The position numbers were made by a program, and so were the translations under genes. From an uncultured virus (IMG/VR IMGVR_UViG_3300027754_002682) (taxonomy: Duplodnaviria; Heunggongvirae; Uroviricota; Caudoviricetes), in IMG/VR virus record IMGVR_UViG_3300027754_002682: a stretch of 64,000 bases of DNA; one strand, written 5' to 3'. Position 1 is the stretch's first letter, and each line of letters starts with the position of its first letter. The notes under the pieces were generated by a model. That model was not told where the DNA came from. It worked only from the letters and a program-made list of their open reading frames with translations, and searched no databases. Positions 20,353 through 52,407 of the stretch are shown here, piece by piece.

Positions 20353-21819
20353 TTATTTTAAACAATGTACATTTATCATTTTGTGTTTTCCAAAAATAAT
20401 TTCTGCACTAATGTATTTATATTTCATATTATTAATTCCGTCATTTTTATAGTCAATACTACCTTGTTGCATTTCCATTATATATCTTCTCTCATTTTTA
20501 GCAGTAGTTTCACCTTTTGCCCATTTATCTATTCCACCGACATTTATTAAACCTTCCGTTTGGTGTGGTAAACAAATAAATTTACCATCTCTTCTATAAG
20601 GTAAAATTGTATGTGGAATTTGAATTTCTCTATCTTCAATTTCTATATTATTTAATATTCCATCATTCAATTCTGCCTGGTCTATAACTATTTTTTCATC
20701 ATGTATATCTTCAAAATTATAATGAAAAATTAAACCATCTGTTGAGTATTTTTTATGTACTTCTTCAATTTCATCTTTTGATAATGCTCTATTCCACATT
20801 TTAATATCAGCAATTTCACCTTTAAAAAATGAATTAGCTTCTTCTACTGAAATAGTCGGAGTATATCCAATATAAAATGGTTCATTACCATATCTTTTTA
20901 AACTAAATTCATATTCCAATGGAGAATGTGTTCCTGTACCATTTCTTGCATCGTTTTCATTTCCATTTAAATAGAAATGCATTTTCTTTTCTAAATCATC
21001 AACAACCATAGTAACCCATGTCCATTCACCTTCATATCTTTTGAACCATTGGTAAAGATGTTCTCTATGTGAGTTCCATAACATACCTGTATACGCTCTA
21101 CTATTATTAAAAGATAATCCCCAATCGTAACCTGGTTTTCTAAATATCGGATATTCTACAAATTTTCTATTTTCATCACCTATCAACCAAATTGGAACTT
21201 TTTCTATTTGTTGGTCTGCTTTTACTAAAACTGATATTGTATGTGAATTAGATATTGCAGCTCTTGTTAATTCTTTTGTTGGTATTTTTATATATGAATC
21301 TTTACCATTAAAAATTGCTGCTTTTTTTGTTTTTTCAAAGTCAATTACTTTTCTTTCTACCATTTCTTCTTTTACACATCTCCAAAACAAATCATCATCT
21401 TCCATACCCCAATCCCAATACTCATTTGAATAACCATTGGTTTGTTCTACTTGTTCTTTTGTAAATAATACTGCTCCACCAAAATACTCTTGATATTTTA
21501 ATTGATAATCGGATTGTGAAATACGAACTGCGATGTGTTTTGGAGTTTCTTCTGGATATGAATAATCACAACTATCATCTTCGGGCACCATATCAATATC
21601 ATGCCAAACTATATAATCACACCCATCATCAAATGCATGTTTTGCACCTATGTTTTTCATTAAACCTCTATTAAATAGATATTCATCTCTTTGGTGCACT
21701 ATGTATATAGTATGGTCTATTCCCTTCTTATCTAAAAAATTAGAAAGATGTGGAACAAAAACATTCATATGTTCTTCTCTATTTCTATATGGGACGCAAA
21801 CTCCTAACTTATGTGCCAT
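20353..21819 (-). CDS. GT7 (beta-1,4-galactosyltransferase-like) with inserted LamG domain
   Basis: VPYRNR, FNRG, WHDID, YFGG, NGYSN, WDWGMEDDDL; LamG insert; LPH...DGINN tail. Confidence 0.88.
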   Translation of the reverse strand: MAHKLGVCVPYRNREEHMNVFVPHLSNFLDKKGIDHTIYIVHQRDEYLFNRGLMKNIGAKHAFDDGCDYIVWHDIDMVPEDDSCDYSYPEETPKHIAVRISQSDYQLKYQEYFGGAVLFTKEQVEQTNGYSNEYWDWGMEDDDLFWRCVKEEMVERKVIDFEKTKKAAIFNGKDSYIKIPTKELTRAAISNSHTISVLVKADQQIEKVPIWLIGDENRKFVEYPIFRKPGYDWGLSFNNSRAYTGMLWNSHREHLYQWFKRYEGEWTWVTMVVDDLEKKMHFYLNGNENDARNGTGTHSPLEYEFSLKRYGNEPFYIGYTPTISVEEANSFFKGEIADIKMWNRALSKDEIEEVHKKYSTDGLIFHYNFEDIHDEKIVIDQAELNDGILNNIEIEDREIQIPHTILPYRRDGKFICLPHQTEGLINVGGIDKWAKGETTAKNERRYIMEMQQGSIDYKNDGINNMKYKYISAEIIFGKHKMINVHCLK

Positions 21820-23246
21820 TATAATAAAACTGAAAGGTGGTGGTGTTTTTTAATTGAAATATCATTTAATATTTGATATAGACAGGTATTTAAACCATCT
21901 TTGTCTGTATCATATAATTTTGTTTTTATTTGATTCAAAAATCTCAATTGATTTATTCTCGTTTCTTTATGAACCCAATTCTTCTCATTCCAACTATTTG
22001 TTTTGTGAGATAATAATTTAAATAACGATGGTCTGCGAAATGGAACTTGTAATTCTTTACCTAATGATTCTTTTGTTTTAATAAAATGAGATTCAACGAT
22101 TTCACCATTATTATCATTGAAACTTAAATCAACTAATTCATTGTTTCTATAAAATCTAAAATCATAATATAATTTTAAATGTTCCGAAGATTTATATGCT
22201 CTAAAATTTTCTAATAATGAATTTTCTAAAATATTTTCAGATATAATCTTTACTTCTTTTGGTTTTAATTTTGTATCATAGATTGCAAATTCTGAAATTA
22301 GTCCAAAAAAATAATTTGGTAAATCTCTATTTGGTTCACCTACACCTAAATAAAAATACTCTTTATCAGAATAGTCTTTGACATTATGTTTTAATTTAGT
22401 CATCCCTAAAAATTCACCATCCTTATAAAAATCAAATTGGTTTAATTCATAATCATATGTTATACAAATTTGCGTAAAATGATTTGATAATATTTCAGAA
22501 TTTATAGAATAACATTGGTCGGTTTCATCCCAAACATCAAATTTATATCTTCTAAATGAATTAAAACTAACCGATGTATCGTATCCAGGAATTGAGAATA
22601 CAGTATATTCATCATATTCATTATTTGGGTTTGATATTATATCATCTGGTTTAAATGTAATCAATATACTAGTATCTTTTTCGAAATTTAATAAATCTTT
22701 CTTTGGTATTTTGATATAAGAATCCGTTCCATTAAATGATAGTCCATATAAATTTTTTACATCCGTTTTACCAATTATCTTAGTATCTAATGCAATTTTC
22801 TTTTCTGCAGTTCTAAATAATAAATCATCATCTTCAAATCCCCATCCCCAATATTGATTAGAATAACCATTTACTTTTTCAAAAGCTTCAACAGAGAACA
22901 TGGTTACTCCACCAAAATAATCATCAAAAATTAAATTCTTAGACTTATCATATTCTAATTCAAAATTAGTTGCTAAATGTAAAGGTACTGCGGAATACGA
23001 ATAATCCACTTCTAATGGTAACATATCAATATCATGAAATACTACATAATTACATAGCAACTCTTTTGCTTTAATAAATCCTATATTTAATAATTTACCT
23101 CTATTAAATGGTTTATCATCTATTTGCTCTACGATTATAAGTTCGTAATCTATTTTATTTTCTTTAAAATAAAGTTTTATAGCATCTGTAAATTTTTTTA
23201 AATGCGATTCTCTTTCTCTATATGGAACAATGATTCCTAATTTCAT
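21819..23246 (-). CDS. GT7 (beta-1,4-galactosyltransferase-like) with inserted LamG domain
   Basis: VPYRER, FNRGKLLNIG, FHDID, YFGGV, WGWGFEDDDL; LamG insert; LSH...DGLN tail. Confidence 0.9.
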   Translation of the reverse strand: MKLGIIVPYRERESHLKKFTDAIKLYFKENKIDYELIIVEQIDDKPFNRGKLLNIGFIKAKELLCNYVVFHDIDMLPLEVDYSYSAVPLHLATNFELEYDKSKNLIFDDYFGGVTMFSVEAFEKVNGYSNQYWGWGFEDDDLLFRTAEKKIALDTKIIGKTDVKNLYGLSFNGTDSYIKIPKKDLLNFEKDTSILITFKPDDIISNPNNEYDEYTVFSIPGYDTSVSFNSFRRYKFDVWDETDQCYSINSEILSNHFTQICITYDYELNQFDFYKDGEFLGMTKLKHNVKDYSDKEYFYLGVGEPNRDLPNYFFGLISEFAIYDTKLKPKEVKIISENILENSLLENFRAYKSSEHLKLYYDFRFYRNNELVDLSFNDNNGEIVESHFIKTKESLGKELQVPFRRPSLFKLLSHKTNSWNEKNWVHKETRINQLRFLNQIKTKLYDTDKDGLNTCLYQILNDISIKKHHHLSVLL

Positions 23247-23256
23247 TTAATTTATA

Positions 23257-23577
23257 TTAAACTGTTTCTATATCTTTTTTTGGTCTTGGTTTTCTAACCG
23301 GCAATTCTGCAGTATCTGCGTCAACTACCGATGTTGGTATTTTTGGTTGTTCTGGATTTACATTAGAAGTCCCACCCTTTGCCATATTATAGTGTTCGTA
23401 TAAATAAAATGCAATTCTTTCACCCCATTCTTTTTTAGGTATTTCTTCAAACCAAATAGTCAATGCATCTAATGAATTTGCTATTTTTTCTAAAGCTTTT
23501 ACTTTTCTTGTTTCTAATACTACATTTTCCAAAGAAGTGTCTGGTGTAGAGTCATTTTGTAATTTTAATTTTGACAT
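23257..23577 (-). CDS. Hypothetical protein
   Basis: 106-aa co-oriented ORF. Confidence 0.7.
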   Translation of the reverse strand: MSKLKLQNDSTPDTSLENVVLETRKVKALEKIANSLDALTIWFEEIPKKEWGERIAFYLYEHYNMAKGGTSNVNPEQPKIPTSVVDADTAELPVRKPRPKKDIETV

Positions 23578-23580
23578 TTT

Positions 23581-25035
23581 TTATATTTTGATTTTGTGTT
23601 TATATACATTTGTTTTTATTTCTTCATTTACTAATTCTTTATAACTTGTAGTATTATATCCAAATAAATCCGTATCTAATACTCCACTTGTTATTTCATA
23701 AAAAAACATTTTTTCGTTTTCTGCAAAATTTTCGTCTTTTACTTTGTAAGTGTAATTATCTAATATAGTGAATTTTTTTGAATTTTCCAAAATTTCAAAT
23801 TTTCCACTAGAGTTTTCAGGCATATTAAACTCATGAGATAAATTTAATTCTTCTGAAAATATTTGTTGATGTATACCTGATGATACAATTCTTGCGTTTG
23901 AAAATGATTTAGAGGAGTCAACATAAAACTCACCAAATTTTTTATCAAAGTCTACATTTATTGTAGCTGGGAAATTGGTCTGTATTTGTCCTTCTAAGTT
24001 TTTGTATCCATCGGAATATAATTTTTGTATTTCCGAATTAGTAAGTGCATAATCAAATAAACATAAATTTGATAATTTACCTTCAAATGAATCTTTAAAT
24101 GCCATACTGCCAATCCAAATATCTTTTCCTCTAAAATCTTTTAAAGTTTTACCTATTTTACTTGAACTTACTAGTTTACCATCGACATATAAATCCATAA
24201 CATGTTTATCTAAATCAACTCTAAATGCTAAATTTATCCATTTATTTGTATGAATTTTATGTGGATACCAAATTTGATATAAATCATTGGCTTCGTCCCA
24301 AATTTGTGCAACTATTGCTTCATTTCTCATTATAAGTAAACCCATGTCATAACCTTGCTTTCCAATAAGAGTACCATCGGTTGATTGGTCATCATTTATA
24401 AAAGCATTTAAAGAAATTGTAAATGAATCTTCAAATATATAATCTGTGGTTTTATTTGCTTTAATCATAGCACAATTATTCTCATCTGATACAAATGGAT
24501 ATATTTTTTTCTTTATTGATTTATTTACCTCTTTTACTTCCGTTAAAGCGTGAAATTTTGAAATATCCCTTGTAAAATATCTTTTTGTTAGAAGCAAATT
24601 GTGTTTATCTAATCTATACAAAAAATCAGGCCAGTGAAATCCACCACCCCAATAATCATTACTAAAACCATTTGCTTTAATAAATTGTTTTTTATCAATT
24701 TTAAATGCACCACCAATCCAATGTGGATATGGTTTTAAATTTGGACAAAGATGTGTTGGGTGATAACTATAATCATAATCACATGTTTCCATTTTTGGTA
24801 ACACATCTACATCTTGAAATACTATATAATCTGCCCAATCTTCTACTATTTTAGCACCTGCATTGCATAGTTTACCATAATTGAAAAATGTATCAGCATC
24901 ATCTTGTTCAATGAAGTGTATTTGATATTCTACTTTGTCTTTTAAGAAATATTCCATGTGACCAATGAAAGAATACATTTGGTCTAGTCTATTCGAAAAT
25001 GGAACTATTATTGCTAATTTTTTATCAGTAATCAT
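23581..25035 (-). CDS. Degenerate GT7-LamG protein (catalytic EDDD replaced)
   Basis: IVPFSNR, FNYG, FQDVD, NGFSNDYWGGGFHWPDF; LamG insert. Confidence 0.8.
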   Translation of the reverse strand: MITDKKLAIIVPFSNRLDQMYSFIGHMEYFLKDKVEYQIHFIEQDDADTFFNYGKLCNAGAKIVEDWADYIVFQDVDVLPKMETCDYDYSYHPTHLCPNLKPYPHWIGGAFKIDKKQFIKANGFSNDYWGGGFHWPDFLYRLDKHNLLLTKRYFTRDISKFHALTEVKEVNKSIKKKIYPFVSDENNCAMIKANKTTDYIFEDSFTISLNAFINDDQSTDGTLIGKQGYDMGLLIMRNEAIVAQIWDEANDLYQIWYPHKIHTNKWINLAFRVDLDKHVMDLYVDGKLVSSSKIGKTLKDFRGKDIWIGSMAFKDSFEGKLSNLCLFDYALTNSEIQKLYSDGYKNLEGQIQTNFPATINVDFDKKFGEFYVDSSKSFSNARIVSSGIHQQIFSEELNLSHEFNMPENSSGKFEILENSKKFTILDNYTYKVKDENFAENEKMFFYEITSGVLDTDLFGYNTTSYKELVNEEIKTNVYKHKIKI

Positions 25036-25050
25036 TTAGTAACTTGTTGT

Positions 25051-25899
25051 TTATATAGATATAATTTTTTTAAATAATTTATTCCATTGTTTGTATTCGT
25101 TTTCACCTACATACTCAAACATATATTCTTTATTTGTAACATCTATTTCAAAATTATTACTTCTTAAAGATTGATACATTTTTAAATATTCATCAGATGC
25201 TGCATAATCTTTTCTAATATCTGCAACCTGTTTAATTCTTTCTACACAAGTCGAATCCCATTTGAAATGGTGTACCTGAACATTGTATTCGTCAACAGGT
25301 GCAATTAACGGGTGATTCCAACCTTGCCATCTCCATGTTGTATGTCCGTCTATTTTTGCATAGTGTTGACCAGATGTGATTTCAATATGTCCTTTCATTA
25401 TACAAACTTTATTTGGACACGCGCCACTCATTGAGTATCTAAAAAATCCTGCAACTGGAAATTGTTCAAATATATTTTCTTTTTTATTTATCTTTGGAAA
25501 ATCACCGGTTTGCCCTACTCTATCAACGAATCCACCTCTTACTAATTCCCATCCATTTCTTTCACAGGCTGATATAATTTCATTTAATGGTTTTGAATAA
25601 ATGTGAAATTCATCATCGTCTGAAACTACCCACCAATCATCAGGAAATAACATTTTTGTTTCATTATATAACTGAGTAACATATTCCCAATTAAATTTTT
25701 CTTTTGTTACTCTTTCTATAATTTTAGCTTTTTCAAATTGTTTAGTTATTTTTAAAACTTCATTATAAGTACTAGAACCTTCCCACTCATAAACTACAAT
25801 ATACATTTCATCTACTAAATCTTTATAATGATTCAGCATATGCCACAATGTATCCACTCTCGAACCTGTTATTGTAACTAATCTTATTTTTTTATTCAT
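25051..25899 (-). CDS. GT-A glycosyltransferase (GT2-like)
   Basis: LNHY, WWVVSDDDEF, GQH, VHHFKW. Confidence 0.75.
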   Translation of the reverse strand: MNKKIRLVTITGSRVDTLWHMLNHYKDLVDEMYIVVYEWEGSSTYNEVLKITKQFEKAKIIERVTKEKFNWEYVTQLYNETKMLFPDDWWVVSDDDEFHIYSKPLNEIISACERNGWELVRGGFVDRVGQTGDFPKINKKENIFEQFPVAGFFRYSMSGACPNKVCIMKGHIEITSGQHYAKIDGHTTWRWQGWNHPLIAPVDEYNVQVHHFKWDSTCVERIKQVADIRKDYAASDEYLKMYQSLRSNNFEIDVTNKEYMFEYVGENEYKQWNKLFKKIISI

Positions 25900-25906
25900 T
25901 CTTTTT

Positions 25907-26665
25907 TTAAGCTTTTCTAGTAAGTAGTGTTATACCTGTACTTGTAACCTTTTTATCAAACATACGATAATTTTTTAAGTTTACCAAATTCCACTCACTA
26001 TTTTTTTCTAAATCTTTAATATATTTTGCCGGGCCATCAAAAGGAACAAAATTTTCTTTTGCATTTTCGGTTACTACAAATGTGTCATGATAATTTTGGT
26101 CTATGTCGTGAATCGTAATAATTCCATTTTCAGACATAATTGAAGAATATAATTCAAAATCTTTTTTAACTCCTTCGTAGGAATGGTCTCCGTCAATATG
26201 TAAGTAATCTATTTTAATGTCTTGTCTTACAAAATAATCATAGAATGCTTTTTCTGATGTGTCTAAAATAACTTGTGGAGAAAAATGTTGTCTTAAAAAA
26301 CTATTATCCTCAGTCCAATCGGTAAATCCACCTACACCATTTGCAGCATCAACTATTATAGTCGTTCCAATATCTCCCCACTCCGTAGAATTATTACCTT
26401 CAAACATTCCCTGTTCCCACAAATCTTTTCTTGCTTGCGTCATCAATCTTGGAATAAATCCACCTCCTGAACCAATGCATACACATACCTTTGCTCTAAT
26501 AAACTGAATAAAGGAATATATCAAAAGTCCATCTCCTAAGTGTAAATCGGTTGCACCATGTGTCCAACGATATTTAACAGGTTCTAAAACTTCTTCACCT
26601 TCTTCGTTTATTTTGTGGTTATTTGTAAGGTATTTTTTTATAAGTACATCGTTAAGTAACTGCAT
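25907..26665 (-). CDS. Class I SAM-dependent methyltransferase (Methyltransf_24-like)
   Basis: CIGSGGG, YLHIDGDHSYEGVKKDF, GIITIHD. Confidence 0.85.
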   Translation of the reverse strand: MQLLNDVLIKKYLTNNHKINEEGEEVLEPVKYRWTHGATDLHLGDGLLIYSFIQFIRAKVCVCIGSGGGFIPRLMTQARKDLWEQGMFEGNNSTEWGDIGTTIIVDAANGVGGFTDWTEDNSFLRQHFSPQVILDTSEKAFYDYFVRQDIKIDYLHIDGDHSYEGVKKDFELYSSIMSENGIITIHDIDQNYHDTFVVTENAKENFVPFDGPAKYIKDLEKNSEWNLVNLKNYRMFDKKVTSTGITLLTRKA

Positions 26666-27624
26666 ATTTCTTTAATCCATTTTTGTTTGTTAGTGTATTT
26701 TTTTAGTCCGGCTTTTAATCTATCGAATTGTTTTTTATTTTTTTCAAATCCATCTTCTAATATTTTTATATATTGATAATGAAATTGTTTTTTATTGATT
26801 GCTCTATATCTGTATTTAATATCTTTCATCCAACTACCATCTAATATTGGAAGTTTACCATTATCAATTGCGTCAAATATTGCATATCCAAATGGTTCTT
26901 TGGTATATGCTCCATGAAATATTTGAAAGTTCTTTTCAAAAAACTTATTATGAAAACGATAATCAAATTCTATGAATGTATGCACGGATGCATTTATTTT
27001 ACTACCCTCTAACATTCTTTTATAGTCATATTTGTTTGAGAATATAAAAGCAGGTATTGAATCTAAGTAATGTGCATTTTTCCTTGTCTCACATCTTGCT
27101 GCATATCCTACTTTATTATCAATTATTCCAACAAATGGTTTTTTATTTTTCCATTCATAGTAATTTGGAATTGTAATTGTTTTTGGATAATATGTGTGTA
27201 TTGTGTCTTTCTCATAACCAATCCAAACAATATTTTCAGAATTGTCTAATATATCTTTTTGCCAATGCCAATCTAAACGGGTCATTAAATTTTCATATTC
27301 ATCATTTAATCCAACCATATCAGGAATGAAAGCATGAACAAATGTAAGATATGTTTTGTGTAAATACTTTTGAATAATAGGATTTGGTTTATATGAATGA
27401 TGTAAGAAAATTATCTTATCACACTCATCTAATATTTTATCAACTTCTTTTTCGTTTCCAAAAGTGTAGATTGCATCAATTTCTCTAACCAAAGGCCTAC
27501 CATCAATTATAATTTTGTAATCTTCTTTGATTAATGGTAAAACATTTTCTATAAAGTTATTGCACCAAATATCAGCACCCCCTATAATATTTTTTCCGTA
27601 ACCTGTTGTAATAAAAACTATCAT
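26638..27624 (-). CDS. GT-B glycosyltransferase (GT4-like)
   Basis: N-terminal GGAD, RCETRKN, EPFGYAIFDA. Confidence 0.75.
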   Translation of the reverse strand: MIVFITTGYGKNIIGGADIWCNNFIENVLPLIKEDYKIIIDGRPLVREIDAIYTFGNEKEVDKILDECDKIIFLHHSYKPNPIIQKYLHKTYLTFVHAFIPDMVGLNDEYENLMTRLDWHWQKDILDNSENIVWIGYEKDTIHTYYPKTITIPNYYEWKNKKPFVGIIDNKVGYAARCETRKNAHYLDSIPAFIFSNKYDYKRMLEGSKINASVHTFIEFDYRFHNKFFEKNFQIFHGAYTKEPFGYAIFDAIDNGKLPILDGSWMKDIKYRYRAINKKQFHYQYIKILEDGFEKNKKQFDRLKAGLKKYTNKQKWIKEICSYLTMYL

Positions 27625-27633
27625 AATTTTATT

Positions 27634-28578
27634 TTATATCAATATTGAATTTTTACCGACTTTTTGTACTTTATTAAAATATTCTAAGCTAGCTGTGTTT
27701 TCTAATATATCCAATTCAACATTATATGGTAGTTTGTGCATATAATCACTTTTATAAAATCTATTAGTATCACTATTCACTATTCCGGCATTATGGAATA
27801 TGTTATTTTTATAAAATTCTTCCTTTGTACCAGTTGCCCATGTAAATTCTAATTTTGGATTACATATTGTATTATATCCCATTTTCCACCCATTCCATAA
27901 TACTGCCCACATATCTGCACACCATATTTGCAGTTCATGATATTCCGGATTTTCTAATTTCTTTTTATTATTTAATTCTGTTATTTCTTTAAATAATATT
28001 TCAGAATCTAATTCTACTCTTTCCCAAAAATAATGAGTTATACCTTTCATTATATATTGTGCACCTATTGAATTTAATTCATTTTCTTTTAATACATCCG
28101 ATTTAATACTCATTATATCACACATTCTATCTAATACATATTGTCCTTTAGATAATATATAATCATGTCCTATATACCACCTACAATCACTACCATACCA
28201 ATTATTATCATTATATATTTCACAACATAACCATTCATTGATAGGATTTGTTAATAATATATCACAATCATGATAAAATATTATTTCATTTTTTAAATAC
28301 AAATGTTTTTCAAAATGTTGTTTTAATATATTAGGTCTTATTGATGATATGTAATTTTTATTTTTTCTGGTATCTTCATAAAAAAAGAATCTAACATCAT
28401 TATATTTATTTGCTAATTTTCTGAATTCATCCGATTCTTTATTATTGTTTTTAGTAGAAACAACATCTATATTATTTGGATTTACCCCCATCTCTATAAA
28501 ATTATTTAACATAACTTCTATTTGCCAAGCATAATATAAATTATCCGGTTGTGCGCAAATAAATCTTAAATTTTTCAT
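27634..28578 (-). CDS. HPAT/SGT1 (GT95/GT96)-like peptide O-glycosyltransferase candidate
   Basis: YYAWQIEVM, IRPNILKQHF, FYHDCD (DxD), IGAQYI, WCADMWA motifs in the order I recall for HPAT/SGT1. Confidence 0.6.
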   Translation of the reverse strand: MKNLRFICAQPDNLYYAWQIEVMLNNFIEMGVNPNNIDVVSTKNNNKESDEFRKLANKYNDVRFFFYEDTRKNKNYISSIRPNILKQHFEKHLYLKNEIIFYHDCDILLTNPINEWLCCEIYNDNNWYGSDCRWYIGHDYILSKGQYVLDRMCDIMSIKSDVLKENELNSIGAQYIMKGITHYFWERVELDSEILFKEITELNNKKKLENPEYHELQIWCADMWAVLWNGWKMGYNTICNPKLEFTWATGTKEEFYKNNIFHNAGIVNSDTNRFYKSDYMHKLPYNVELDILENTASLEYFNKVQKVGKNSILI

Positions 28579-28597
28579 AACCTTTATTTTGTAATTT

Positions 28598-29539
28598 TTA
28601 ACATTGTAAAGTGTTTCTTAAAAATGTACCACTTGTTATATTCCAACAAACACCGGACATAGATTCATAATGTCTTCTAGTTATTGGATTACCATTAACA
28701 TCTCTAGCTATTGCCGTACAAGAATTTACACTACCACCACCGATACCACCAAATACATTGCCATTTGCTACAAATGCTGCGTAATCACTATCAATAAAGT
28801 ATATTCTAGAAATTGTACCGGTTCCACATCCACCCACTGCACACGTTTCACTTATATCGACTAATGTATATATCGGTGCAGCAGTTGTAGGTGCTGCGGT
28901 TGTTGGTGCAGCAGTTGTAGGTGCTGCAGTTGTAGTTGGTGCTGCGGTTGTAGGTGCTGCAGTTGTAGGTGCTGCAGTTGTAGTTGGTGCTGCGGTTGTA
29001 GTTGGTGCTGGACAAGATGCACAAGCCAATTGTGGTGTAGCTGTTTGTGCAGAACCATTTCGTAGGAAGTACCTAACATTATCTTGACGATTTATATAGA
29101 TTGTCTCATTATTAGCAAAGTCTGCGTATAGATTACCAATTGTGGCTGATGACATAGCCCGTAACGATGTTGCATCACATAAATTTGTTCCATAAACAGT
29201 AATTGTAACAAGTCCATATATCCCCCCTGCACATGCATCCGCCTCACTTTCTGTACTTACAAATCCTGTGAATGTAGCTTGTGCTGGAGCTGCAGTTGTA
29301 GTTGTAGTTGTAGTTGTTGTAGTTGTTGTAGTAGTTGTGACAGGTGCGGCAGTTGTAGTTGGTGCAGCAGTTGTAGTTGGTGCAGCAGTTGTGGCCGTAC
29401 TATATCCAAAAAATTCAGACATAACATCAGGTGCACTTTTACCAGCTGCAGCACTATATGCTCGTAGTGAATTTGATGCGGAACCTAATTCAGCTTTGAT
29501 TTCTGACATTTTAATTGGGCCTGTTCCTGAAAGTGGCAT
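28598..29539 (-). CDS. Mucin-like Pro/Thr/Ala-rich protein, probable fibre-tip adhesin
   Basis: N-terminal MPLSGTGPIKMSEI...MSEFFG; two (PTT[T]AA)n tracts separating Cys-containing domains; coupled to fibre gene by TAATG. Confidence 0.75.
   Translation of the reverse strand: MPLSGTGPIKMSEIKAELGSASNSLRAYSAAAGKSAPDVMSEFFGYSTATTAAPTTTAAPTTTAAPVTTTTTTTTTTTTTTTAAPAQATFTGFVSTESEADACAGGIYGLVTITVYGTNLCDATSLRAMSSATIGNLYADFANNETIYINRQDNVRYFLRNGSAQTATPQLACASCPAPTTTAAPTTTAAPTTAAPTTAAPTTTAAPTTAAPTTAAPTTAAPIYTLVDISETCAVGGCGTGTISRIYFIDSDYAAFVANGNVFGGIGGGSVNSCTAIARDVNGNPITRRHYESMSGVCWNITSGTFLRNTLQC
28874..29011 (-). repeat. 15/18-bp coding tandem repeats (PTTAA/PTTTAA)
   Basis: Repeated ggtgc(t/a)gc(a/g)gttgt(agt) units on + strand. 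Confidence 0.95.
29283..29398 (-). repeat. Coding repeats PTTTAA plus poly-Thr tract
   Basis: (gttgta)n run and ggtgcagcagttgtagtt units. Confidence 0.95.
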
Positions 29540-32500
29540 TACCTATTCTTTTTTAATTCTTCAATTTGTTTTTGTTGTTCTTTTATCGCTTCAATTAATA
29601 GTGGAATTATTTTTTCATATCTAACTCCTTTATAACCACCATCTCTTTGAATAACGATTTCCGGCATAACTTCTTCAACTTCTTGTGCTATTACACCATA
29701 GTCTAATCCTTTATTTGAATGATAAACTTCAAATCCATCTTTCCAAACAAAAGAGTTACCTGTTAATTTTTTTATTTTTTCAATTGGATTATCAATTGGT
29801 ATAATATTATCTTTCCATCTTTTGTCCGATGAAGTATTAGCAGTAACATCTCCTGTACAAGTTAAACCACCACCTATACTTACAAAGTCCGCATTATTTG
29901 CTCTTGGAATGGAAATATATCTATCCGTATTAAAAACAACCTGGAAACCCCCAGCAATCATTTCCGTTTTAGATACAGGAACAGATGTGGCTATACTACT
30001 TAGGTATGGTGTATATGCAATTACCGAAAATACTGCAGGTTCTAAATTTATATTATTAGTAGTTAATGTTGCAGATGCGAATATGTTTGTAATAAATGGA
30101 GTGATTGTATATGTCCCCTGCTGTAAAGTAAGTGTAGTTGAAATTAAAGCCGATGGGGTTATTGTTAATAGGTATGGATTTAAATGTTGTGTACTATATG
30201 AATTTGTTTTATCCTCATAGGCATATGTTACACTTGAATCCGGTGCAGTTAATTTAAATCCAACTCTGCAGTTAATTTCTTGATAATTTACATAAAAAGT
30301 AGTGGGCCCATCGTCACCACCAACTTCAAAAGACATTACGGTCGGTGCACCCAATTGAGCTGCAAATGTACAAGATTTTCCTATTAATGCATTACCCGGC
30401 GCAACAGTTAATGTGGATGTAGTTGAGTGAGTATAAATTGTAGTATCAGTACCATATTCAACTTTATAACCATATCTATTGTCATAAGTTACTCCATTAA
30501 GTACAGTAGTTCTTGCAGAAATATTAGCAGTTGATGGTGTGAGTGACCCTGCAGATTTATCCGATAATGTAGTCGCAGTACTAATATCAACAACTATTTG
30601 CCCAGCTGTATCATAAATTTCCATTGCAGGCCTTACCGAATTTAATTTTAATCTATCAGTTCCTAATGTAGTTGAATTAATTCCCCATCCGGCAATACTT
30701 CCCGCAGTAGTTGCAGTTATATTGGTTGCAATGATATTACCTTTAATTGCCAATGCATCGGTTGCAGAGTTCCAAGTTAAATAACCATTTGTACCATCCA
30801 AATAAAAATTACCATTATTTGCCATATATGTTTTCCATGCACCACCACTATAATACCCCATATTTGTAGAACCTAAAAATAAACCAGTTGTATTTGTAGT
30901 TGGTGTTTTTACAATTTTACCCGTTGAGTCGGTAAAAATAGACGCGGTATTTGCATTTATAAGTGCAAACGCAGCTGCACTCACTGCTGTATTTGCAGTT
31001 CCTTGTGCAGCAGCTGCTGATGCCGTTGCAGCATTTGCAGTTCCTTGTGCATTTGACCCTGATAAAGCAGCATCCGATATTTTTGTTGCAGCATCACCAC
31101 CTGATATGTTGATATTACCGGTAACCGACAATGTAGTTCCATCCCAAGTCAATTTATCTTTTAGTGAGAATTTACCAGTATTATCTACATAAAATCCCGT
31201 ATTAGAATTACCATGAGTACCAGTTCCTATGTATATTTTTGTAGATGCAATCGTAACTCCTCCAATACTACCTCCTGTTATTGCATCTCCATTACTAAAA
31301 GAACCAACTGCTCCTCCGTTGTTTGCAGTTGATGGATTTGTAATTGTTATAGTACCATTTACCGATAAGTTTGAACCATCGTAAGATAATTTATTTCCTA
31401 ATGAAAATTTACCTGTACTATCTAAATAAACATTTGTATTTGAATTATTAAATGCACCAGAATATTCATTAAATACAGTATCAGATGGGTTTACTATTCC
31501 ACCTATAAATATTTTTCTAGGATTTTGTCTTGCATCTAAATAAATTGATGGGGTAGTTCCTACTTTAAATAATGAACTAATATATCCAAGTTGTCCACCT
31601 ATTACAGGAGAAAAAACAGTTGTACCATCTATAAATGTTCCATTATATCCCAAAGTACCATTTGCTAATTGTTGCACTTTTGCAAATGAAGATGACAAAG
31701 TAGTGGCTATACTTGCACTCAACGAACCACTTAATACTCCAATAGTTCCACTCACCGAACCACTTAATACTCCAATAGTTCCACTCACAGAACCACTTAA
31801 TACTCCAATAGTTCCACTCACCGATGAACTTACACTACCAATAGTTCCACTAACTGATGAACTTAATGTCGTAATACTACCACTAACACTACCACTCAAT
31901 GTATTAACTGAACCACTTGTAACAACAATTGTTCCACTAATAGAAGATGATACTCTATTTAAATCTGCTAATGATTGAGAAGTTGAAGAACTAATTAATA
32001 AAATAGTTCCACCAATATTGGTATTGCCTCCATTGAATGTAGCACTTTGTGTAACTGCTACTGGAACAAAATTATTATTTACATCATAAAATTCAAATTT
32101 AAAATTAAATGTTTCATTACCTAATACCGTCGGCATTGTAGTAACAAACGAAACCTCATCAGGAGAAAATGCAGTATCTTGTGATAATTTTAAACTAATA
32201 TTACCAACATGCCAATCTCCCTGTGATTGTGAAAAATATAAACTTGCAGATGGATAATTTCTATCTATTTTAAATGGAACAACTGTATCTAATAAATTTT
32301 TTGTAGGTTGTGTCCCTATCAATGTTGTAATACTACTTGATACAATTGTTGGTGTTATTCCATCACCAGATGTTGTAACTTGACTTAAATATATTCCTAA
32401 ATTACTTGAAGTAGATGATGAATAAAATGCATCTAAATTTAATTCGTAAGTATTTGCACTTTTTATATCCAAAGAAGATGTATATCTAAAATACCCACTA

Positions 32501-33378
32501 CCTGTTAATCTAACACCACTTTCAACTCTACTGGATGTAAGAAATGCATTCAACGAACCAGTATTCCAATAATTTTTAAGTGTTTCCGATGTTAGTATAC
32601 CTGTTTCTCCTATAACACTTCCTGACAACCCATATGATGTTAATAATTCTTTTGATTCAATTAATATATCTTGTATTAAATCATAATCAGAAATATCACC
32701 TTGAGACGTTCTAAATACTTTTACTCGTTTAACATCCCCCGCAAATGTTTCTAATTTTGATAATTTTATATTTGCAAAGGATTGAGTAACCGCAGATGCA
32801 ACTTTATTATCTCCAACAATTGAATATATGGGACTTAATATTTCGGTGATAGTAGCTGTGGGTCTTTGGTAAAATCTAATCTTTGTAGTATTAGCTAATC
32901 CAGGATTTACATTTATAGTCTTTGTCCACTTAACATTATATTTATTTTCCCAATCTAAACCAACCGGTACTACTATTCCATTTGCATCGGTATATTCACT
33001 TAATTCACCTAATATTGTAAGAGTACACGGCCCAAACGCCGTATCCGGATAAACATAGACTGCAACAACTTTAGAAACACCTTCAAAATATTCCGTAATG
33101 ATTGGTGTATTTGTAGAACCACTTATATTGGTATTAATGATACCTTCACCTGGTTCGTTATAAATTATATTACCACTTGCATCTCTTAATTCTATTTGTA
33201 TTTTTGTATCCGGTACTAATTCTTTTGAACCCGCAATTAAAAACGCGTTCTTGCCACCTGTAAATGTATCAGGCAATTCTGTTATTTTAAAATATTTACT
33301 ATTAGGTTCCGTATCATTTACTAATACGGCATATCTGTCTAAGTTTTTAGCAAATAAAGTTTTTTGTATAACTGCCAT
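29539..33378 (-). CDS. Tail fibre protein with C-terminal intramolecular chaperone (peptidase S74)
   Basis: SDKRWKDNI...GVIAQEVEEVMPE...IEAIKEQ; repeated FSL..KL.WDG..L.V.G modules. Confidence 0.9.
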   Translation of the reverse strand: MAVIQKTLFAKNLDRYAVLVNDTEPNSKYFKITELPDTFTGGKNAFLIAGSKELVPDTKIQIELRDASGNIIYNEPGEGIINTNISGSTNTPIITEYFEGVSKVVAVYVYPDTAFGPCTLTILGELSEYTDANGIVVPVGLDWENKYNVKWTKTINVNPGLANTTKIRFYQRPTATITEILSPIYSIVGDNKVASAVTQSFANIKLSKLETFAGDVKRVKVFRTSQGDISDYDLIQDILIESKELLTSYGLSGSVIGETGILTSETLKNYWNTGSLNAFLTSSRVESGVRLTGSGYFRYTSSLDIKSANTYELNLDAFYSSSTSSNLGIYLSQVTTSGDGITPTIVSSSITTLIGTQPTKNLLDTVVPFKIDRNYPSASLYFSQSQGDWHVGNISLKLSQDTAFSPDEVSFVTTMPTVLGNETFNFKFEFYDVNNNFVPVAVTQSATFNGGNTNIGGTILLISSSTSQSLADLNRVSSSISGTIVVTSGSVNTLSGSVSGSITTLSSSVSGTIGSVSSSVSGTIGVLSGSVSGTIGVLSGSVSGTIGVLSGSLSASIATTLSSSFAKVQQLANGTLGYNGTFIDGTTVFSPVIGGQLGYISSLFKVGTTPSIYLDARQNPRKIFIGGIVNPSDTVFNEYSGAFNNSNTNVYLDSTGKFSLGNKLSYDGSNLSVNGTITITNPSTANNGGAVGSFSNGDAITGGSIGGVTIASTKIYIGTGTHGNSNTGFYVDNTGKFSLKDKLTWDGTTLSVTGNINISGGDAATKISDAALSGSNAQGTANAATASAAAAQGTANTAVSAAAFALINANTASIFTDSTGKIVKTPTTNTTGLFLGSTNMGYYSGGAWKTYMANNGNFYLDGTNGYLTWNSATDALAIKGNIIATNITATTAGSIAGWGINSTTLGTDRLKLNSVRPAMEIYDTAGQIVVDISTATTLSDKSAGSLTPSTANISARTTVLNGVTYDNRYGYKVEYGTDTTIYTHSTTSTLTVAPGNALIGKSCTFAAQLGAPTVMSFEVGGDDGPTTFYVNYQEINCRVGFKLTAPDSSVTYAYEDKTNSYSTQHLNPYLLTITPSALISTTLTLQQGTYTITPFITNIFASATLTTNNINLEPAVFSVIAYTPYLSSIATSVPVSKTEMIAGGFQVVFNTDRYISIPRANNADFVSIGGGLTCTGDVTANTSSDKRWKDNIIPIDNPIEKIKKLTGNSFVWKDGFEVYHSNKGLDYGVIAQEVEEVMPEIVIQRDGGYKGVRYEKIIPLLIEAIKEQQKQIEELKKNR
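31724..31950 (-). repeat. 33-bp (11-aa SVSGTIGVLSG) tandem repeats in fibre gene
   Basis: gaaccacttaatactccaatagttccactcac x3 near-perfect, then degenerate copies. Confidence 0.92.
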
Positions 33379-33391
33379 TTAATCTTTTTAA

Positions 33392-33472
33392 ATAAATATC
33401 TCTAAAAAAAGAATTATGTCATATTTATCTAAAGAAAACTAATATACATTATATAATACTAAAGAAAACTAA
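33392..33472. promoter_or_regulatory. Divergent promoter region with 14-bp direct repeats CTAAAGAAAACTAA
   Basis: ATATTTAT on minus (33392-33399) and plus (33421-33428); exact repeats at 33429-33442 and 33459-33472. Confidence 0.65.
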
Positions 33473-33479
33473 ATAAGTT

Positions 33480-33665
33480 ATGAAATACGCAATGTTACAA
33501 ATCAAAAAAGAAACCCATGAACTTCTCAAAGGGTATTGTGAAGAACACGGGTTTAAAATGGGTAGCCTAGTTGAAAATCTAATCAAGAAACACGTCGGTG
33601 TCTCAAAACCACAATCTAGTGTGTTGAAGGCTGATAAGGTCGTTCTTAGAAATCAATCTTACTAA
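33480..33665 (+). CDS. Small ribbon-helix-helix-like DNA-binding protein
   Basis: beta-strand AMLQI then helices KETHELLKGYCEEHG-FKMGSLVENLI; only credible plus-strand gene. Confidence 0.7.
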   Translation: MKYAMLQIKKETHELLKGYCEEHGFKMGSLVENLIKKHVGVSKPQSSVLKADKVVLRNQSY

Positions 33666-36600
33666 ACCCATTTACTTTTTTTATTTCTATCAATCCATCT
33701 ACGATATCTCTCATTTGTTCTAAGTGAGAAATAACCCAAATGAAATCAAATTGAGTTTTAAGATATTGCATCATCATAAATAAAGATGATAAGTTATCTG
33801 CGTCTAATGTTCCAAATCCTTCGTCTACTACTAAGAAATTCGGACGAGGTAAGTTACATACATTAATAAGTGCAACTCTAATAGCAAGTCCACTCACAAA
33901 CTTCTCCATTCCACTACACATCTCCAATGGCCATTCCTGGTCTTCGTAAACTATTTTTGCATTAATTGATTTACCATCCATTTCCATTGTAACACCAAAG
34001 TCTACAACTTGTGCAAGAATATTGTTTACCTCATTCTCAATAACAGGTAATGCTTTTGAAATTAATTCATATGGAATACCATCTCTCTTTACAGCATCTA
34101 AATAATAGGTGTATAATCGGTTCTTTTCCTCTAAGTCCTTAACCTCATTCATCTTTTGTTTGATACTGTCTATATAAGTCTGTAATGATGATATAGAACC
34201 ATTTGTAGTTGCTACTTCTTTAGTAATATCTTTAATGTCCGACTCAAATCTTTTCTTTGCAATTTCTAAGTCTTTAATTTGTTTTTCTAACTCTTTATTA
34301 CTTTGAATAGTGTCCTCATTCTCATAATACTTTTCAATATCATCCTCTACATTGTCTAATTGGGTTTCTAATAATTCTTCTTTTGTAATAAAACTATCAA
34401 ATTGTAATACATAGTTTTTATGACTAGCTTTACCTTTTTCTAATTTAGTATTCAAATCATTATACTCATCCCATTGTTTTTCAATATCACCAAAGTTTGT
34501 AATTTGTTGAATTAAAGCATCGTAGGCAATATTTAGGGTTTCCATTTCATTACCTTGCTTTATCAAATCCTCTTTTGCTTTCATTGCATCCTTTACGAAC
34601 ACATTATCACAACAAAACTTACAATTGGGGTCGTACTCATGACTATCCAAATGTGAAATCTTCTTTTGATTAGACTCAATTGATTGTTCTAATAATGCAA
34701 TATAATGTCCTGTATTTTTCTTTGAATTAATTGCAATATCATATTGTTTTATAGAGTCTTCAATTGGAGTATCACCAATCATTTTCTTTTCGTTGATACT
34801 TTGTAATATTTCAACCATCGTTTCAGTAATCGTAGAAATCTCTTTGGCTTTATCTTGCATATTATTTTTATTTGCATCAATATCACCTTGTACTTTTGCC
34901 TTGCGTTCATTCAAATCATCAATATTCAAATTACCATCAATGGGAGTAAGGTTTCTACTTAAATCTAATATAACACTATCTAAACCATCTTTGTCAGCAT
35001 TCAATCTAGCCAATTCTTTATCCAATTCCTTTAGCTCACCTTTTTTATCTTTTAAGTCATTTGCTTTATCTGCAAGTTCGGTAGTAAAGTCGTTTCTCTT
35101 AAAGTTTTTAATCAATACCGAAACTTCTTTAATATCTTCAATTGCCGTATCGTATAATTTGTCAAAAACATTCAATCCCATAAATTGAGCAAGTAAGTCT
35201 TTTCTCTCACTTTGTGATTTGTCAATGAATATAGAATTATTACCTTGTAACGATAAAGCGGTCAATACGAAATCTTCATACTTACCAACATATTGTTCAA
35301 TTACGGCATTTGTGTCTCTCCTTTCAGTTCCGTTCAAAGAAGTTTTATCATCACCATCTTGTCTATAAAACTGAACATCAACTTTAACATTTTTTCCTTT
35401 GTTTATAGTTTTTGCAGTTCTTTCAATATGATAATCTATACCTTCAATTTGAAAATGTAAATGACAACTAAAATCTTGCTTTCTATTGTTTAAGATATTT
35501 TGTGCTTTGAATGCTCTACTACTCTTATCATAAAGACAGAATGAAATTGCGTCAAATATAGATGACTTACCTTGTGCATTTGGTGCAAACAATCCCATCA
35601 ATCCGTTTAACTTACTAAAATCAATCTTATTGTCCTCACCATAACTAAACATATTAGAAAACTCAAATCTAATCGGTTTCCAATAAATGTTTCTTAAAGT
35701 TTCCTCATGTGTAATTCTACTATTGACATCTCTATTTATCTTTTCTAATTCACCTAAATCTTTTGCATCAACAAACGGCATCATTCTTTCCACATACTCA
35801 TTTATTAGAGAGTTTTGGTAGTTTATATCTGCAATGTTTTCAAAGTCTAATTTATTACCTCTATCTCCTGTTTTCTTTTTTGCTAGGGAGTCTGTTCTAA
35901 TAATTGTAAAGTCATCAACACCATATTTCATTTTGATTTCTGCAATTACCTTTTTAGTGTCCGCAGTATCGGTGTTTGACAATCTTACTCTTAAACGAGG
36001 ATGTTTTGGCATATCGTTTACAACTGGAACCTTACCATTGTCAATATCCATAGTATAATAACCATAGTCATTTTGAATGTCAATTTCCTCATAGGTCATT
36101 GTGTCTAAATCCCATGCTAAAAATCCATGTCTATCCAATGTCTCACCAAAGTTTTGTTGTAATAGAGAACCTGCGTAAACTACCTTACAACCTTTCGGAC
36201 TTATCATTTCTTGACGCTTATGAATATCACCCAATAAGGCTAAATCAAAACCATCAAATATATCCGTTGTAAAATGTCTACTACTTACAACATATCCAAT
36301 ATCAGTTTGTGAATTATCAACAGGTCCGTGGAATAAAGCAATCTTTTTATTACCAAACATTTTGTCAGCACTAATCCAATTGTTTTTGTTATCTAAAATT
36401 GAAAATACTGAAAAATCAATACCACCAATAGAAAATACCTGTGTATCTCTTAAATAATAAAAGTCTTTTAATTCTAATGCATCAACCAATGGAGTAAGAA
36501 CATCCATTCTATCCATATTGTTCATATTACAATCGTGATTTCCGGTAATAAGAATTGTAGGACAAGTTTTAGCACACTCTTTGAATAACCAACTTATTTC

Positions 36601-36795
36601 GTTGACTAATTCTGGTGACATTTCTAATTTAGCGTGGGCAATATCACCTGCTAAATATATAATTGCATCTTCGGTTCCTCTTTTACGGATTTCCTCAAAC
36701 ATTTTTTCAAATACTTGTCTATATTCTTTGTGTCTTTTTACATTACGGATGTGTACATCGGCAATGTGGTAAATTGTTTTTAATTTACTACTCAT
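33646..36795 (-). CDS. Fused SbcD/Mre11 nuclease - SbcC/Rad50 ATPase (gp47-gp46-like)
   Basis: ADVH, GD, GNHD, LGDIH; Walker A PNAQGKSS; hook CKFC; signature CSGMEK; Walker B VVDEGFGTLD; ISH. Confidence 0.93.
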   Translation of the reverse strand: MSSKLKTIYHIADVHIRNVKRHKEYRQVFEKMFEEIRKRGTEDAIIYLAGDIAHAKLEMSPELVNEISWLFKECAKTCPTILITGNHDCNMNNMDRMDVLTPLVDALELKDFYYLRDTQVFSIGGIDFSVFSILDNKNNWISADKMFGNKKIALFHGPVDNSQTDIGYVVSSRHFTTDIFDGFDLALLGDIHKRQEMISPKGCKVVYAGSLLQQNFGETLDRHGFLAWDLDTMTYEEIDIQNDYGYYTMDIDNGKVPVVNDMPKHPRLRVRLSNTDTADTKKVIAEIKMKYGVDDFTIIRTDSLAKKKTGDRGNKLDFENIADINYQNSLINEYVERMMPFVDAKDLGELEKINRDVNSRITHEETLRNIYWKPIRFEFSNMFSYGEDNKIDFSKLNGLMGLFAPNAQGKSSIFDAISFCLYDKSSRAFKAQNILNNRKQDFSCHLHFQIEGIDYHIERTAKTINKGKNVKVDVQFYRQDGDDKTSLNGTERRDTNAVIEQYVGKYEDFVLTALSLQGNNSIFIDKSQSERKDLLAQFMGLNVFDKLYDTAIEDIKEVSVLIKNFKRNDFTTELADKANDLKDKKGELKELDKELARLNADKDGLDSVILDLSRNLTPIDGNLNIDDLNERKAKVQGDIDANKNNMQDKAKEISTITETMVEILQSINEKKMIGDTPIEDSIKQYDIAINSKKNTGHYIALLEQSIESNQKKISHLDSHEYDPNCKFCCDNVFVKDAMKAKEDLIKQGNEMETLNIAYDALIQQITNFGDIEKQWDEYNDLNTKLEKGKASHKNYVLQFDSFITKEELLETQLDNVEDDIEKYYENEDTIQSNKELEKQIKDLEIAKKRFESDIKDITKEVATTNGSISSLQTYIDSIKQKMNEVKDLEEKNRLYTYYLDAVKRDGIPYELISKALPVIENEVNNILAQVVDFGVTMEMDGKSINAKIVYEDQEWPLEMCSGMEKFVSGLAIRVALINVCNLPRPNFLVVDEGFGTLDADNLSSLFMMMQYLKTQFDFIWVISHLEQMRDIVDGLIEIKKVNGFSKIDF

Positions 36796-52402: not shown

Positions 52403-52407
52403 TTCTA

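Follow-up and report, generated by a model that had tools for sequence, protein, structure and literature searches.

A candidate threonine O-glycosyltransferase encoded directly behind a threonine-tract protein and an S74 tail fibre in an uncultured Caudoviricetes virus

The uncultured Caudoviricetes virus IMGVR_UViG_3300027754_002682, a large aquatic phage, is represented here by one stretch of 64,000 nucleotides (nt), referred to as the window, in which three consecutive genes encode a long tail fibre, a 313-residue protein with two threonine (Thr) tracts, and a 314-residue protein that is the main subject of this report. We propose that the 314-residue protein is a soluble, metal-dependent glycosyltransferase (GT) of the GT-A type, that it starts an O-linked glycan on the Thr tracts of its neighbour, and that the product is a mucin-like stalk associated with the fibre; taken as a whole, the sequences and models make this proposal likely. 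It draws on the predicted fold and a conserved DxD motif, the order of the genes, the linkage of the enzyme family with Thr-rich genes across many phages, and the joint presence or absence of enzyme and Thr tails among related phages. The three genes, read along the minus strand, are as follows.

29539..33378, minus strand: tail fibre, 1279 residues, with a C-terminal S74 intramolecular chaperone (PF13884, Peptidase_S74)
28598..29539, minus strand: tract protein, 313 residues, from translation of the open reading frame (ORF)
27634..28578, minus strand: soluble GT-A protein, 314 residues, phrog_4417, proposed Thr-tract O-glycosyltransferase from its PHROG match, fold model and linkage

All three ORFs lie where the preliminary description had placed them. 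The stop codon of the fibre gene and the start codon of the tract gene overlap (TAATG), and 19 nt separate the stop of the tract gene from the ATG of the enzyme gene.

An AlphaFold2 model of the 314-residue protein, built on a 46-row alignment, was of high confidence (predicted local distance difference test, pLDDT, 96.8; predicted template modelling score, pTM, 0.93). Comparison in VIA-align gave GT8-type proteins as the best matches (LgtC, Z 14.3, root mean square deviation (rmsd) 3.8 over 242 aligned residues; glycogenin, 13.8; the catalytic domain of UGGT, 13.7; WbbM, 13.6; the Skp1 alpha-galactosyltransferase, 13.6; LARGE1, 13.4; GlyE, 12.6), the best of the GT8 enzymes spanning Z 13.2–14.3; 96 chains had a Z of at least 8, and GT-A enzymes made up all of the top rows. 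Foldseek returned 222 PDB matches at an expectation value (E) of 0.001 or lower, with template modelling (TM) scores of 0.43–0.51 for the GT8-type enzymes. The motifs by which the protein had originally been picked out were all found (YYAWQ at residues 15–19, IRPNILKQHF at 80–89, YHDCD at 102–106 and WCADMWA at 219–225). Among 46 diverse family members, D106 of the YHDCD motif and H262 were invariant and D104 was kept in at least 90%; we take D104 and D106, together with the distal H262, to be the DxD-plus-His pattern with which GT-A enzymes hold metal and nucleotide sugar. The earlier assignment to the GT-A class is backed by this confident model and by the DxD motif. The family domain covers residues 4–314, leaving no room for a membrane anchor. 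Searches of Pfam (E ≤ 0.1) and NCBIfam assigned the protein to no family, and a PDB sequence search with the protein and with the family profile gave no match. The protein did match phrog_4417, a family of 'unknown function', at E 8.2e-60; one search recovered 2463 members of this family at E ≤ 0.001, with 859 representatives of clusters at 50% identity.

The preliminary description had likened the protein to the plant peptide glycosyltransferases HPAT (GT95) and SGT1 (GT96). No GT96 sequence, model or family appeared among the matches, and kinship with SGT1 is unsupported. In the ESM Atlas, the model aligned over 282 residues with a TM of 0.74 (by query) to a Streptophyta cluster whose members are 100% PF23452 HPAT, both sides of this comparison being predicted structures, and related viral Atlas clusters had HPAT matches on 10% of their members. 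The PF23452 model missed the 314-residue protein, 45 of the 46 aligned family members and all nine cultured-phage homologues. The remaining member (P0248) was collinear with the model, with residues 9–242 matching positions 9–230 of 307 (E 1.3e-4), but its 21.9 bits fall short of the cut-off, 23.9. When longer proteins were searched with the family profile, 53 fused forms came back and none of the hits was from a plant. The likeness therefore held for the fold and failed for sequence membership: the protein is HPAT-like in structure and, by the Pfam rule, not a member of the family, and it is probably a distant relative. DUF7164 (PF23741), another suggestion from the Atlas, was rejected after none of 18 family members matched it at E ≤ 0.1.

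The 313-residue protein contains 64 Thr and nine cysteines (Cys), all of the latter outside the tracts, and is divided as follows.

29399..29539, minus strand: N-terminal module, residues 1–47, MPLxxSGxIxMSxI...SEF[FY]G, proposed docking part (from an alignment with relatives, A2)
29282..29398, minus strand: tract 1, Thr/Pro/Ala, residues 48–86, with 24 Thr, 15 of them in a single run, proposed acceptor of O-linked sugar (from the translation)
29012..29281, minus strand: first Cys-containing globular part, residues 87–176, with Cys 103, 121, 173 and 176, no known family
28874..29011, minus strand: tract 2, Thr/Pro/Ala, residues 177–222, with PTT[T]AA repeats and 19 Thr, proposed acceptor (from the translation)
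28598..28873, minus strand: C-terminal Cys-containing part, residues 223–313, with Cys 233, 238, 274, 298 and 313, no known family

The two Thr tracts and the Cys-containing domains are thus present as first described. Tandem Repeats Finder located repeats in the tract DNA at 28875–29008 (periods 15, 33 and 48) and at 29294–29392. Defining a poly-Thr ORF as one with at least eight Thr within 12 residues, we found that the 313-residue protein was the sole one among 259 stop-to-stop ORFs of at least 50 residues in the window.

From the order of the genes and from an N-terminal module that it shares with relatives, we place the 313-residue protein at the fibre, to which it is probably attached, or with which it is assembled, through its first 47 residues. 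Among the loci compared, its relatives share these residues only: the module can be aligned to the opening ~55 residues in the tract proteins of L008, L018, L021, L062, L065, L072 and L082 (A2), with a blastp E of 3e-12 to that of L062. At all nine loci with such a tract gene (seven distinct sequences), a long S74-type fibre ORF precedes it with overlapping stop and start codons. The window's own fibre scores 58.2 bits (E 1e-15) with PF13884, whose cut-off is 22, over residues 1184–1242, is predicted to cleave itself before SDKRWK at residue 1184, and also matches many PHROG tail-fibre families. A complex prediction with three copies each of fibre residues 960–1183 and of the N-terminal module scored 0.01 against a mark of 0.32, and counts neither way.

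Searches with the 313-residue protein yielded low-complexity matches only in Pfam and PHROGs and no match by tblastn in 50,697 cultured phage records, where its first 48 residues likewise found none. The ESM Atlas returned scores all below 0.8 for residues 226–313, for which the Atlas model itself was poor (pLDDT 0.47). The preliminary description had compared the protein with gp38-type adhesins, a comparison for which Pfam, PHROGs, tblastn and the Atlas offered no link. As with gp38 of the T2/T6 type, a small gene directly follows the distal fibre gene, and the likeness is one of position only; the fibre here differs from gp38 systems in maturing by its own S74 chaperone, with no connection in sequence or fold. 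The further suggestion of a bottle-brush receptor-binding tip is best treated as a hypothesis.

Linkage between the enzyme family and Thr-rich genes was evident well beyond the window. Among cultured phage records, 77 contained the family by tblastn, and in all ten of the different cultured phage groups that we inspected the gene immediately before the homologue, or that gene's extension in another frame, was Thr-rich, with nine of the ten reaching eight Thr in 12. The upstream Thr-rich features were as follows.

Enterococcus phage phiFL1A: major tail protein; Thr runs are likewise found at the end of the major head protein
Lactobacillus phage Iacchus: 128-residue 'major tail protein'
Chryseobacterium phage MA9V-3: 429-residue protein
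Clostridium phage phiCTP1: tail tube
Staphylococcus phage SA2: tail protein and overlapping ORF
Arcanobacterium phage TPWB06: tail protein and overlapping ORF, arranged as in SA2
Enterococcus phage Planchet: unannotated stretch directly 3' of the capsid gene
Lactobacillus phage SAC12B: Ig-domain protein with TTV[KA]P repeats, with only six Thr in 12
Lactococcus phage 1706: orf13; the capsid orf10 farther upstream has a like ending
Lacticaseibacillus phage R3.3: 307-residue ORF

In the small siphoviruses, the homologue sits between the tail-tube and tail-chaperone genes, inside the structural module. Metagenomic viral contigs provided a first set of 80 loci, and three additional scans that started from distant members brought the total to 164. 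In the first set, a tract ORF was upstream-adjacent at 49 loci, within 3 kb at two, elsewhere at three and missing at 22, with four loci lacking upstream DNA; 78 of 81 tract ORFs lay upstream on the same strand, and none was downstream-adjacent at 76 loci. Over the 164 loci, a poly-Thr ORF was upstream-adjacent at 106 of 156 that could be evaluated and downstream-adjacent at 4 of 157. When the enzymes were clustered by sequence identity, the linkage was distributed as follows.

Clusters at 95% identity: 108, of which 74 all adjacent, 1 mixed, 29 none, 4 not evaluable
Clusters at 70% identity: 53, of which 33 all adjacent, 6 mixed, 12 none, 2 not evaluable
Clusters at 50% identity: 16, of which 8 all adjacent, 2 mixed, 6 none, 0 not evaluable

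Those tract proteins that could be named were particle proteins: phrog_1407, a major tail protein; phrog_14478, a virion structural protein; and fibre-type proteins with Gly_rich_2. The co-occurrence of the gene pair that the preliminary description had named as a check is found across cultured and metagenomic phages, and in the tract-first direction.

Several features of the Thr-rich endings deserve separate mention. In Planchet (L086, ~3760–3890), SA2 (L085, 3667–3930) and TPWB06 (L089, 3720–3926), poly-Thr stretches in another frame come directly after the capsid or tail-tube gene or overlap its end, which suggests that frameshifted, Thr-tailed versions may be produced in addition to the unextended one, with SPP1 gp17.1* as a parallel. 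The capsid orf10 and orf13 of phage 1706 (L088) have a common ending after the Thr run, ...TTTTTTTTTHHD, and two ORFs of R3.3 (L169, L173) share the ending ...SHA after theirs. Such common peptides could form part of a recognition tag.

A comparison within one family of tail proteins showed enzyme and Thr tail varying together. The phiFL1A tail tube is a member of the SPP1 gp17.1 family (76 matching records), and eight gp17.1-type relatives were compared with it. One of these, R3.3, bears the enzyme; its tail protein ends in TTTTTTSHA, and the ORF before the enzyme ends in TTTTTTKAPTTTTTSSHA. In the whole records of the other seven, the enzyme profile detected no homologue (0/7, against 3/3 positive controls). 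Thr tails were present in both enzyme-bearing phages (phiFL1A and R3.3) and in none of the seven enzyme-free relatives, which had no ORF with more than six Thr in 12 in the stretch compared. The tail proteins of these seven stop where the Thr tail of phiFL1A starts, and in the annotated records the next tail gene follows directly (two records call it a chaperone, and one record is unannotated). That the enzyme transfers sugar to threonine is strongly indicated by the fold, the linkage and this co-variation considered together.

Whether a family member could begin a glycan was addressed in five small phages. No GT2 (PF00535) or GT1 (PF00534) gene was found in phiFL1A, phiCTP1, 1706, R3.3 or Planchet when these two Pfam families were searched, whereas 14 of 14 control genomes were positive. 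The family member is thus the only transferase recognisable by GT2 and GT1 models in these phages, which argues that it can start a glycan, as the preliminary description had supposed; an initiating role fits these genomes, and a host enzyme could also serve. In the infected cell, the 314-residue enzyme would transfer the first sugar from a nucleotide sugar to the threonine hydroxyls of the 313-residue protein. Enzymes encoded downstream (the GT-B, methyltransferase, weakly GT2-like and GT7-type proteins that open the list below) would then extend the glycan, fed by a phage-encoded supply of sugar nucleotides, and a stiff, mucin-like stalk resistant to proteases would result, holding two small Cys-containing domains off the particle.

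26638..27624, minus strand: GT-B protein (GT4-like), 328 residues, candidate second or elongating transferase, from its fold model
25907..26665, minus strand: class I methyltransferase (Methyltransf_24), 252 residues, possibly a sugar O-methyltransferase (PF13578, E 1.4e-10, 42.4 bits against 26.3)
25051..25899, minus strand: weakly GT2-like protein, 282 residues (PF13704, E 0.0035, 18.2 bits, below the cut-off of 27.5)
20353..25035, minus strand: three paralogous fusions of a GT7-type (beta-4-galactosyltransferase-like) domain with ConA/LamG, 488, 475 and 484 residues (PF13733, PF02709 and PF13385 over their cut-offs in each), plus a 106-residue ORF
18933–20348, minus strand: twitch-type radical SAM protein (NCBIfam, 337 bits against a cut-off of 170)
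15375–16043 and 10362–10892, minus strand: two halves of a thiamine-dependent E1-like enzyme
3064–27624, minus strand: sugar island of ~25 kb between the terminase and the fibre cassette, from PHROG, Pfam and NCBIfam matches

The window thus encodes six or seven transferases with a sugar-synthesis island downstream. The GT-B gene begins 9 nt downstream of the 314-residue gene; its product had no match in Pfam, PHROG or NCBIfam, and its model resembled HepE (VIA-align Z 20.5, rmsd 4.6, 295 aligned), sucrose-phosphate synthase (19.6), BshA (18.9) and PimA (18.5). Homologues of the GT7-LamG fusions occur at L062, L021 and L082, and in animal polypeptide GalNAc-transferases lectin domains bind sites that are already glycosylated. 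The island also encodes three SDR sugar epimerase/dehydratases, an RmlC-like epimerase and an 874-residue protein with a cytidylyltransferase-like N-terminus, while many of its ORFs match no family; NCBIfam named no transferase, the radical SAM protein alone being over a cut-off. With this island and the enzymes that follow the tract gene, the phage could supply unusual donors itself and assemble an extended glycan.

Members of the family also occur in cells and in fused forms. From a scan of 185,579 species genomes 80 loci were retained, 34 with short forms and 46 with long fused forms. Of the short forms, 18 of 34 follow a poly-Thr ORF, mostly prophage-like Bacillota tail proteins ending in ...PYPxTTTTTTTT. 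The long forms belong mostly to Chitinophaga, Pedobacter, Sphingobacterium, Mucilaginibacter and related Bacteroidota. Among 22 long representatives, nine had a further domain over the Pfam cut-off on the C-terminal side (GT2, GT6, GT7C, GT29, GT32 or radical SAM), and the 53 forms of at least 610 residues comprised 19 with radical SAM and SPASM, eight with GT32 and GT2, four with GT2, two with GT6 and 20 with nothing known. A homologue of C39-peptidase ABC exporters lay within 4 kb of 22 of the 46 fused forms, a weak LanC-like gene beside 12, and one or the other at 29; small ORFs with a double-glycine leader accompanied 15 (17 peptides), each with a ...QLKxVLGG leader, a Ser/Thr-containing stretch and typically six Cys. 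This peptide context supports the view that the family acts on peptides, and the Bacteroidota loci may be clusters for glycosylated secreted peptides; our literature search found no report of such enzymes in Bacteroidota peptide clusters. The radical SAM and SPASM fusions are among proteins P0138 and P0275–P0296, and this pairing is typical of peptide-modifying enzymes. Bacteroidota loci in the range L184–L253 also join the family domain to a GT7C-like part, with HlyD genes nearby.

Several considerations weigh against the proposal. All of the evidence consists of sequence and predicted structure, and the 313-residue protein matches no virion family in Pfam, PHROGs or tblastn, so that we infer its location on the particle. 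No adjacent poly-Thr ORF was found at 50 of 156 loci, and six of the 16 clusters at 50% identity never have one; because related loci and contigs counted twice are included, the raw counts overstate independence, and the cluster counts are the fairer measure. The fused chromosomal forms lack an adjacent tract in 45 of 46 cases, and poly-Thr is therefore not the acceptor for the whole family. Finally, the next gene in the window encodes a GT-B enzyme, modelled with moderate confidence (pLDDT 69.5 from four rows). In serine-rich-repeat adhesin systems a GT-B enzyme initiates and GT8 enzymes extend, and the roles in the window could therefore be reversed. The GT-B neighbour or a host enzyme would then start on threonine, with the GT8-like protein adding the second sugar; the fold matches of the neighbour include the pneumococcal O-GlcNAc transferase GtfA (Z 16.8), and those of the 314-residue protein include GlyE, a GT8 enzyme of that pathway. 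Set against this are the Thr tails of the five small phages with no GT2 or GT1 gene among the two families searched, to which a host initiator could still contribute, and we regard the reversed order as unlikely.

The enzyme might instead act on another target, such as a host surface polysaccharide, a lipid-linked glycan or phage DNA, its adjacency to tract genes reflecting no more than a shared variable region. Sugar islands such as the 25-kb one here are often ascribed to remodelling of the host surface, and the loci without an adjacent tract, including the Bacteroidota fusions without a poly-Thr neighbour, would suit this explanation. It is difficult to reconcile with the position of the gene in small siphoviruses, within a structural module between tail tube and tail chaperone, with the preponderance of upstream over downstream tracts (106 against 4), with the absence of Thr tails from seven of seven enzyme-free relatives, and with a protein that leaves no room for a membrane anchor; we consider it very unlikely. 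A GT-A fold could also serve a different chemistry on threonine, either sugar-phosphate transfer, as in Stealth or GlcNAc-1-phosphotransferase-like proteins, or nucleotidyl transfer. Both have counterparts among the fold matches (GlcNAc-1-phosphotransferase and CpsY, Z 9.4–9.9; nucleotidyltransferases, Z 9–10), but these lie at least 4 Z units below the GT8-type rows; moreover, the DxD with a distal His is presumably a GT-A metal site, and the family's fusion partners include ordinary glycosyltransferase domains. Such chemistry seems to us scarcely probable. Initiation of an O-glycan on the Thr tracts by the 314-residue enzyme is the explanation that we prefer.

A broader generalisation can be put forward only tentatively, and we would sooner doubt it than rely on it. 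A single HPAT-like family might serve bacteria and their phages generally as an O-glycosyltransferase for Thr and Ser in peptides, which in phages would act on poly-Thr tags of capsid, tail-tube and fibre-associated proteins to yield mucin-like coats, and in Bacteroidota, fused to a second transferase, on secreted Cys-rich peptides with double-glycine leaders. The cassette in the window would travel with the variable end of the fibre, with six or seven further enzymes building a complex glycan that takes part in adsorption or host range. Comparison with the closest relative, L062, bears on this cassette. Its downstream enzymes are 91–96% identical to those of the window, its family enzyme is 61% identical to the 314-residue protein, and the chaperone-end region of its fibre is 40% identical; its tract protein has 614 residues and only the N-terminal module in common with that of the window. 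This mosaic of identities indicates that fibre end, tract protein and enzyme behave as an exchangeable cassette, which fits a fibre-associated, host-facing role and does not by itself demonstrate it. Subtilisin-like Peptidase_S8 proteins with poly-Thr tracts of their own were seen near the same loci in relatives (L012, 9878–11659; L023, 2631–4523; L071, 3–1532).

The remainder of the window is consistent with a T4-like myovirus, as indicated by PHROG matches of its ORFs, which include a primase and the following genes.

94–1701, minus strand: large terminase (PHROG match)
50375–52848, minus strand: baseplate wedge proteins (PHROG match)

The window is AT-rich (GC 0.24–0.35), and its minus strand carries every long ORF. 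The closest terminase among cultured phages, at 53% identity, is that of Flavobacterium phage vB_FspM_immuto, and megablast of positions 23000–34000 against cultured phages gave no match. Scans of the same positions detected no excess of promoters (63, against a shuffle mean of 72) or of terminators (6, against 3.4 in shuffles); five of the six predicted terminators are on the plus strand, within the tract repeats and antisense to the genes. Two other genes of the window were unexpected in form or setting. A single ORF of 1049 residues (33646–36795) combines an SbcD/Mre11-like nuclease part (phrog_100, residues 6–337) with an SbcC/Rad50-like part (phrog_77, residues 321–1048), which in T4 are two proteins. 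A Nol-like carbamoyltransferase (phrog_1601, E 2.9e-117) is encoded at 57054–58751 amid tail and baseplate genes, and could be a candidate for sugar carbamoylation.

If the proposal is correct, the sugar-coating of phage particles would be a widespread trait beyond the mycobacteriophages, marked by a Thr run with the enzyme behind it, predictable from genomes, and present in phages of Lactococcus and Lactobacillus that are easy to handle. It would bear on particle stability, on adhesion to mucus and host glycans, on recognition by antibodies and bacterial defences, and on the mass-spectrometric annotation of virion proteins. It would also give phrog_4417 its first function, link the fold of a plant cell-wall enzyme to bacteria and phages, and suggest that Bacteroidota may make glycosylated peptides of a new natural-product class; one enzyme and a poly-Thr tag would be a potential tool for protein glycosylation in bacteria. 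The transferase and sugar island, the N-terminal module after S74 fibres, and the Bacteroidota fused forms in double-glycine-leader clusters are new here. Our literature search, whose coverage did not extend to the text of Freeman et al. 2023, found no paper in which a phage pairs poly-Thr tracts with a transferase dedicated to them, and none on HPAT-like phage enzymes.

Among known systems, the mycobacteriophages studied by Freeman et al. 2023 reportedly encode transferases that modify proteins of their own particles. According to a paper that cites this work, mycobacteriophage virion glycans are found at the C-termini of capsid and tail-tube subunits (PMC12619734). The Thr tails of phiFL1A, 1706, R3.3, phiCTP1, SA2 and TPWB06 are likewise at C-termini, and the transferase gene again lies beside genes for virion proteins (in all ten cultured groups and at 106 of 156 loci). 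Unlike the mycobacteriophage type, the proposed acceptor is a pure Thr or a Thr/Pro/Ala tract and the enzyme family is unnamed; this family spans phages of Bacillota, Actinomycetota and Bacteroidota as well as aquatic myoviruses, and in the window six or seven further enzymes follow it.

The closest predicted structure to the 314-residue protein is that of plant HPAT (GT95, PF23452), and both enzymes, as proposed for ours, would act on peptides rich in proline or in hydroxy amino acids. HPAT is a Golgi membrane protein that uses UDP-L-arabinofuranose to modify hydroxyproline, whereas the phage protein is predicted to be soluble and the tracts linked to it are Thr-rich; hydroxyproline tracts are not known in bacteria. 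The best matches among solved structures, the GT8-type enzymes LgtC, glycogenin, UGGT and GlyE (Z 12.6–14.3 over 219–248 residues), have the DxD at a similar position, and glycogenin, UGGT and GlyE act on proteins. The phage protein differs from them in having only 8–13% identity, no match to the Pfam GT8 model (Glyco_transf_8) and no PDB sequence match. Mucin-type O-glycosylation by GT27 enzymes, which join GT-A and lectin domains, stiffens a stalk by setting O-glycans densely along its Pro/Thr/Ser repeats, in outline as proposed here. The three GT7-LamG fusions in the window similarly combine a GT-A catalytic domain with a lectin domain; unlike GT27, they offer no evidence of homology, their lectin is of ConA/LamG rather than ricin type, and the setting is cytoplasmic rather than the Golgi. 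A viral counterpart is A64R of Chlorella virus PBCV-1 (PDB 2p6w), a virus-encoded soluble GT-A enzyme that glycosylates the virus's own capsid protein. It is among the fold matches of the 314-residue protein (VIA-align Z 10.8, Foldseek E 4.1e-5), well below the GT8-type enzymes, and its acceptor and glycan chemistry are different from those proposed here.

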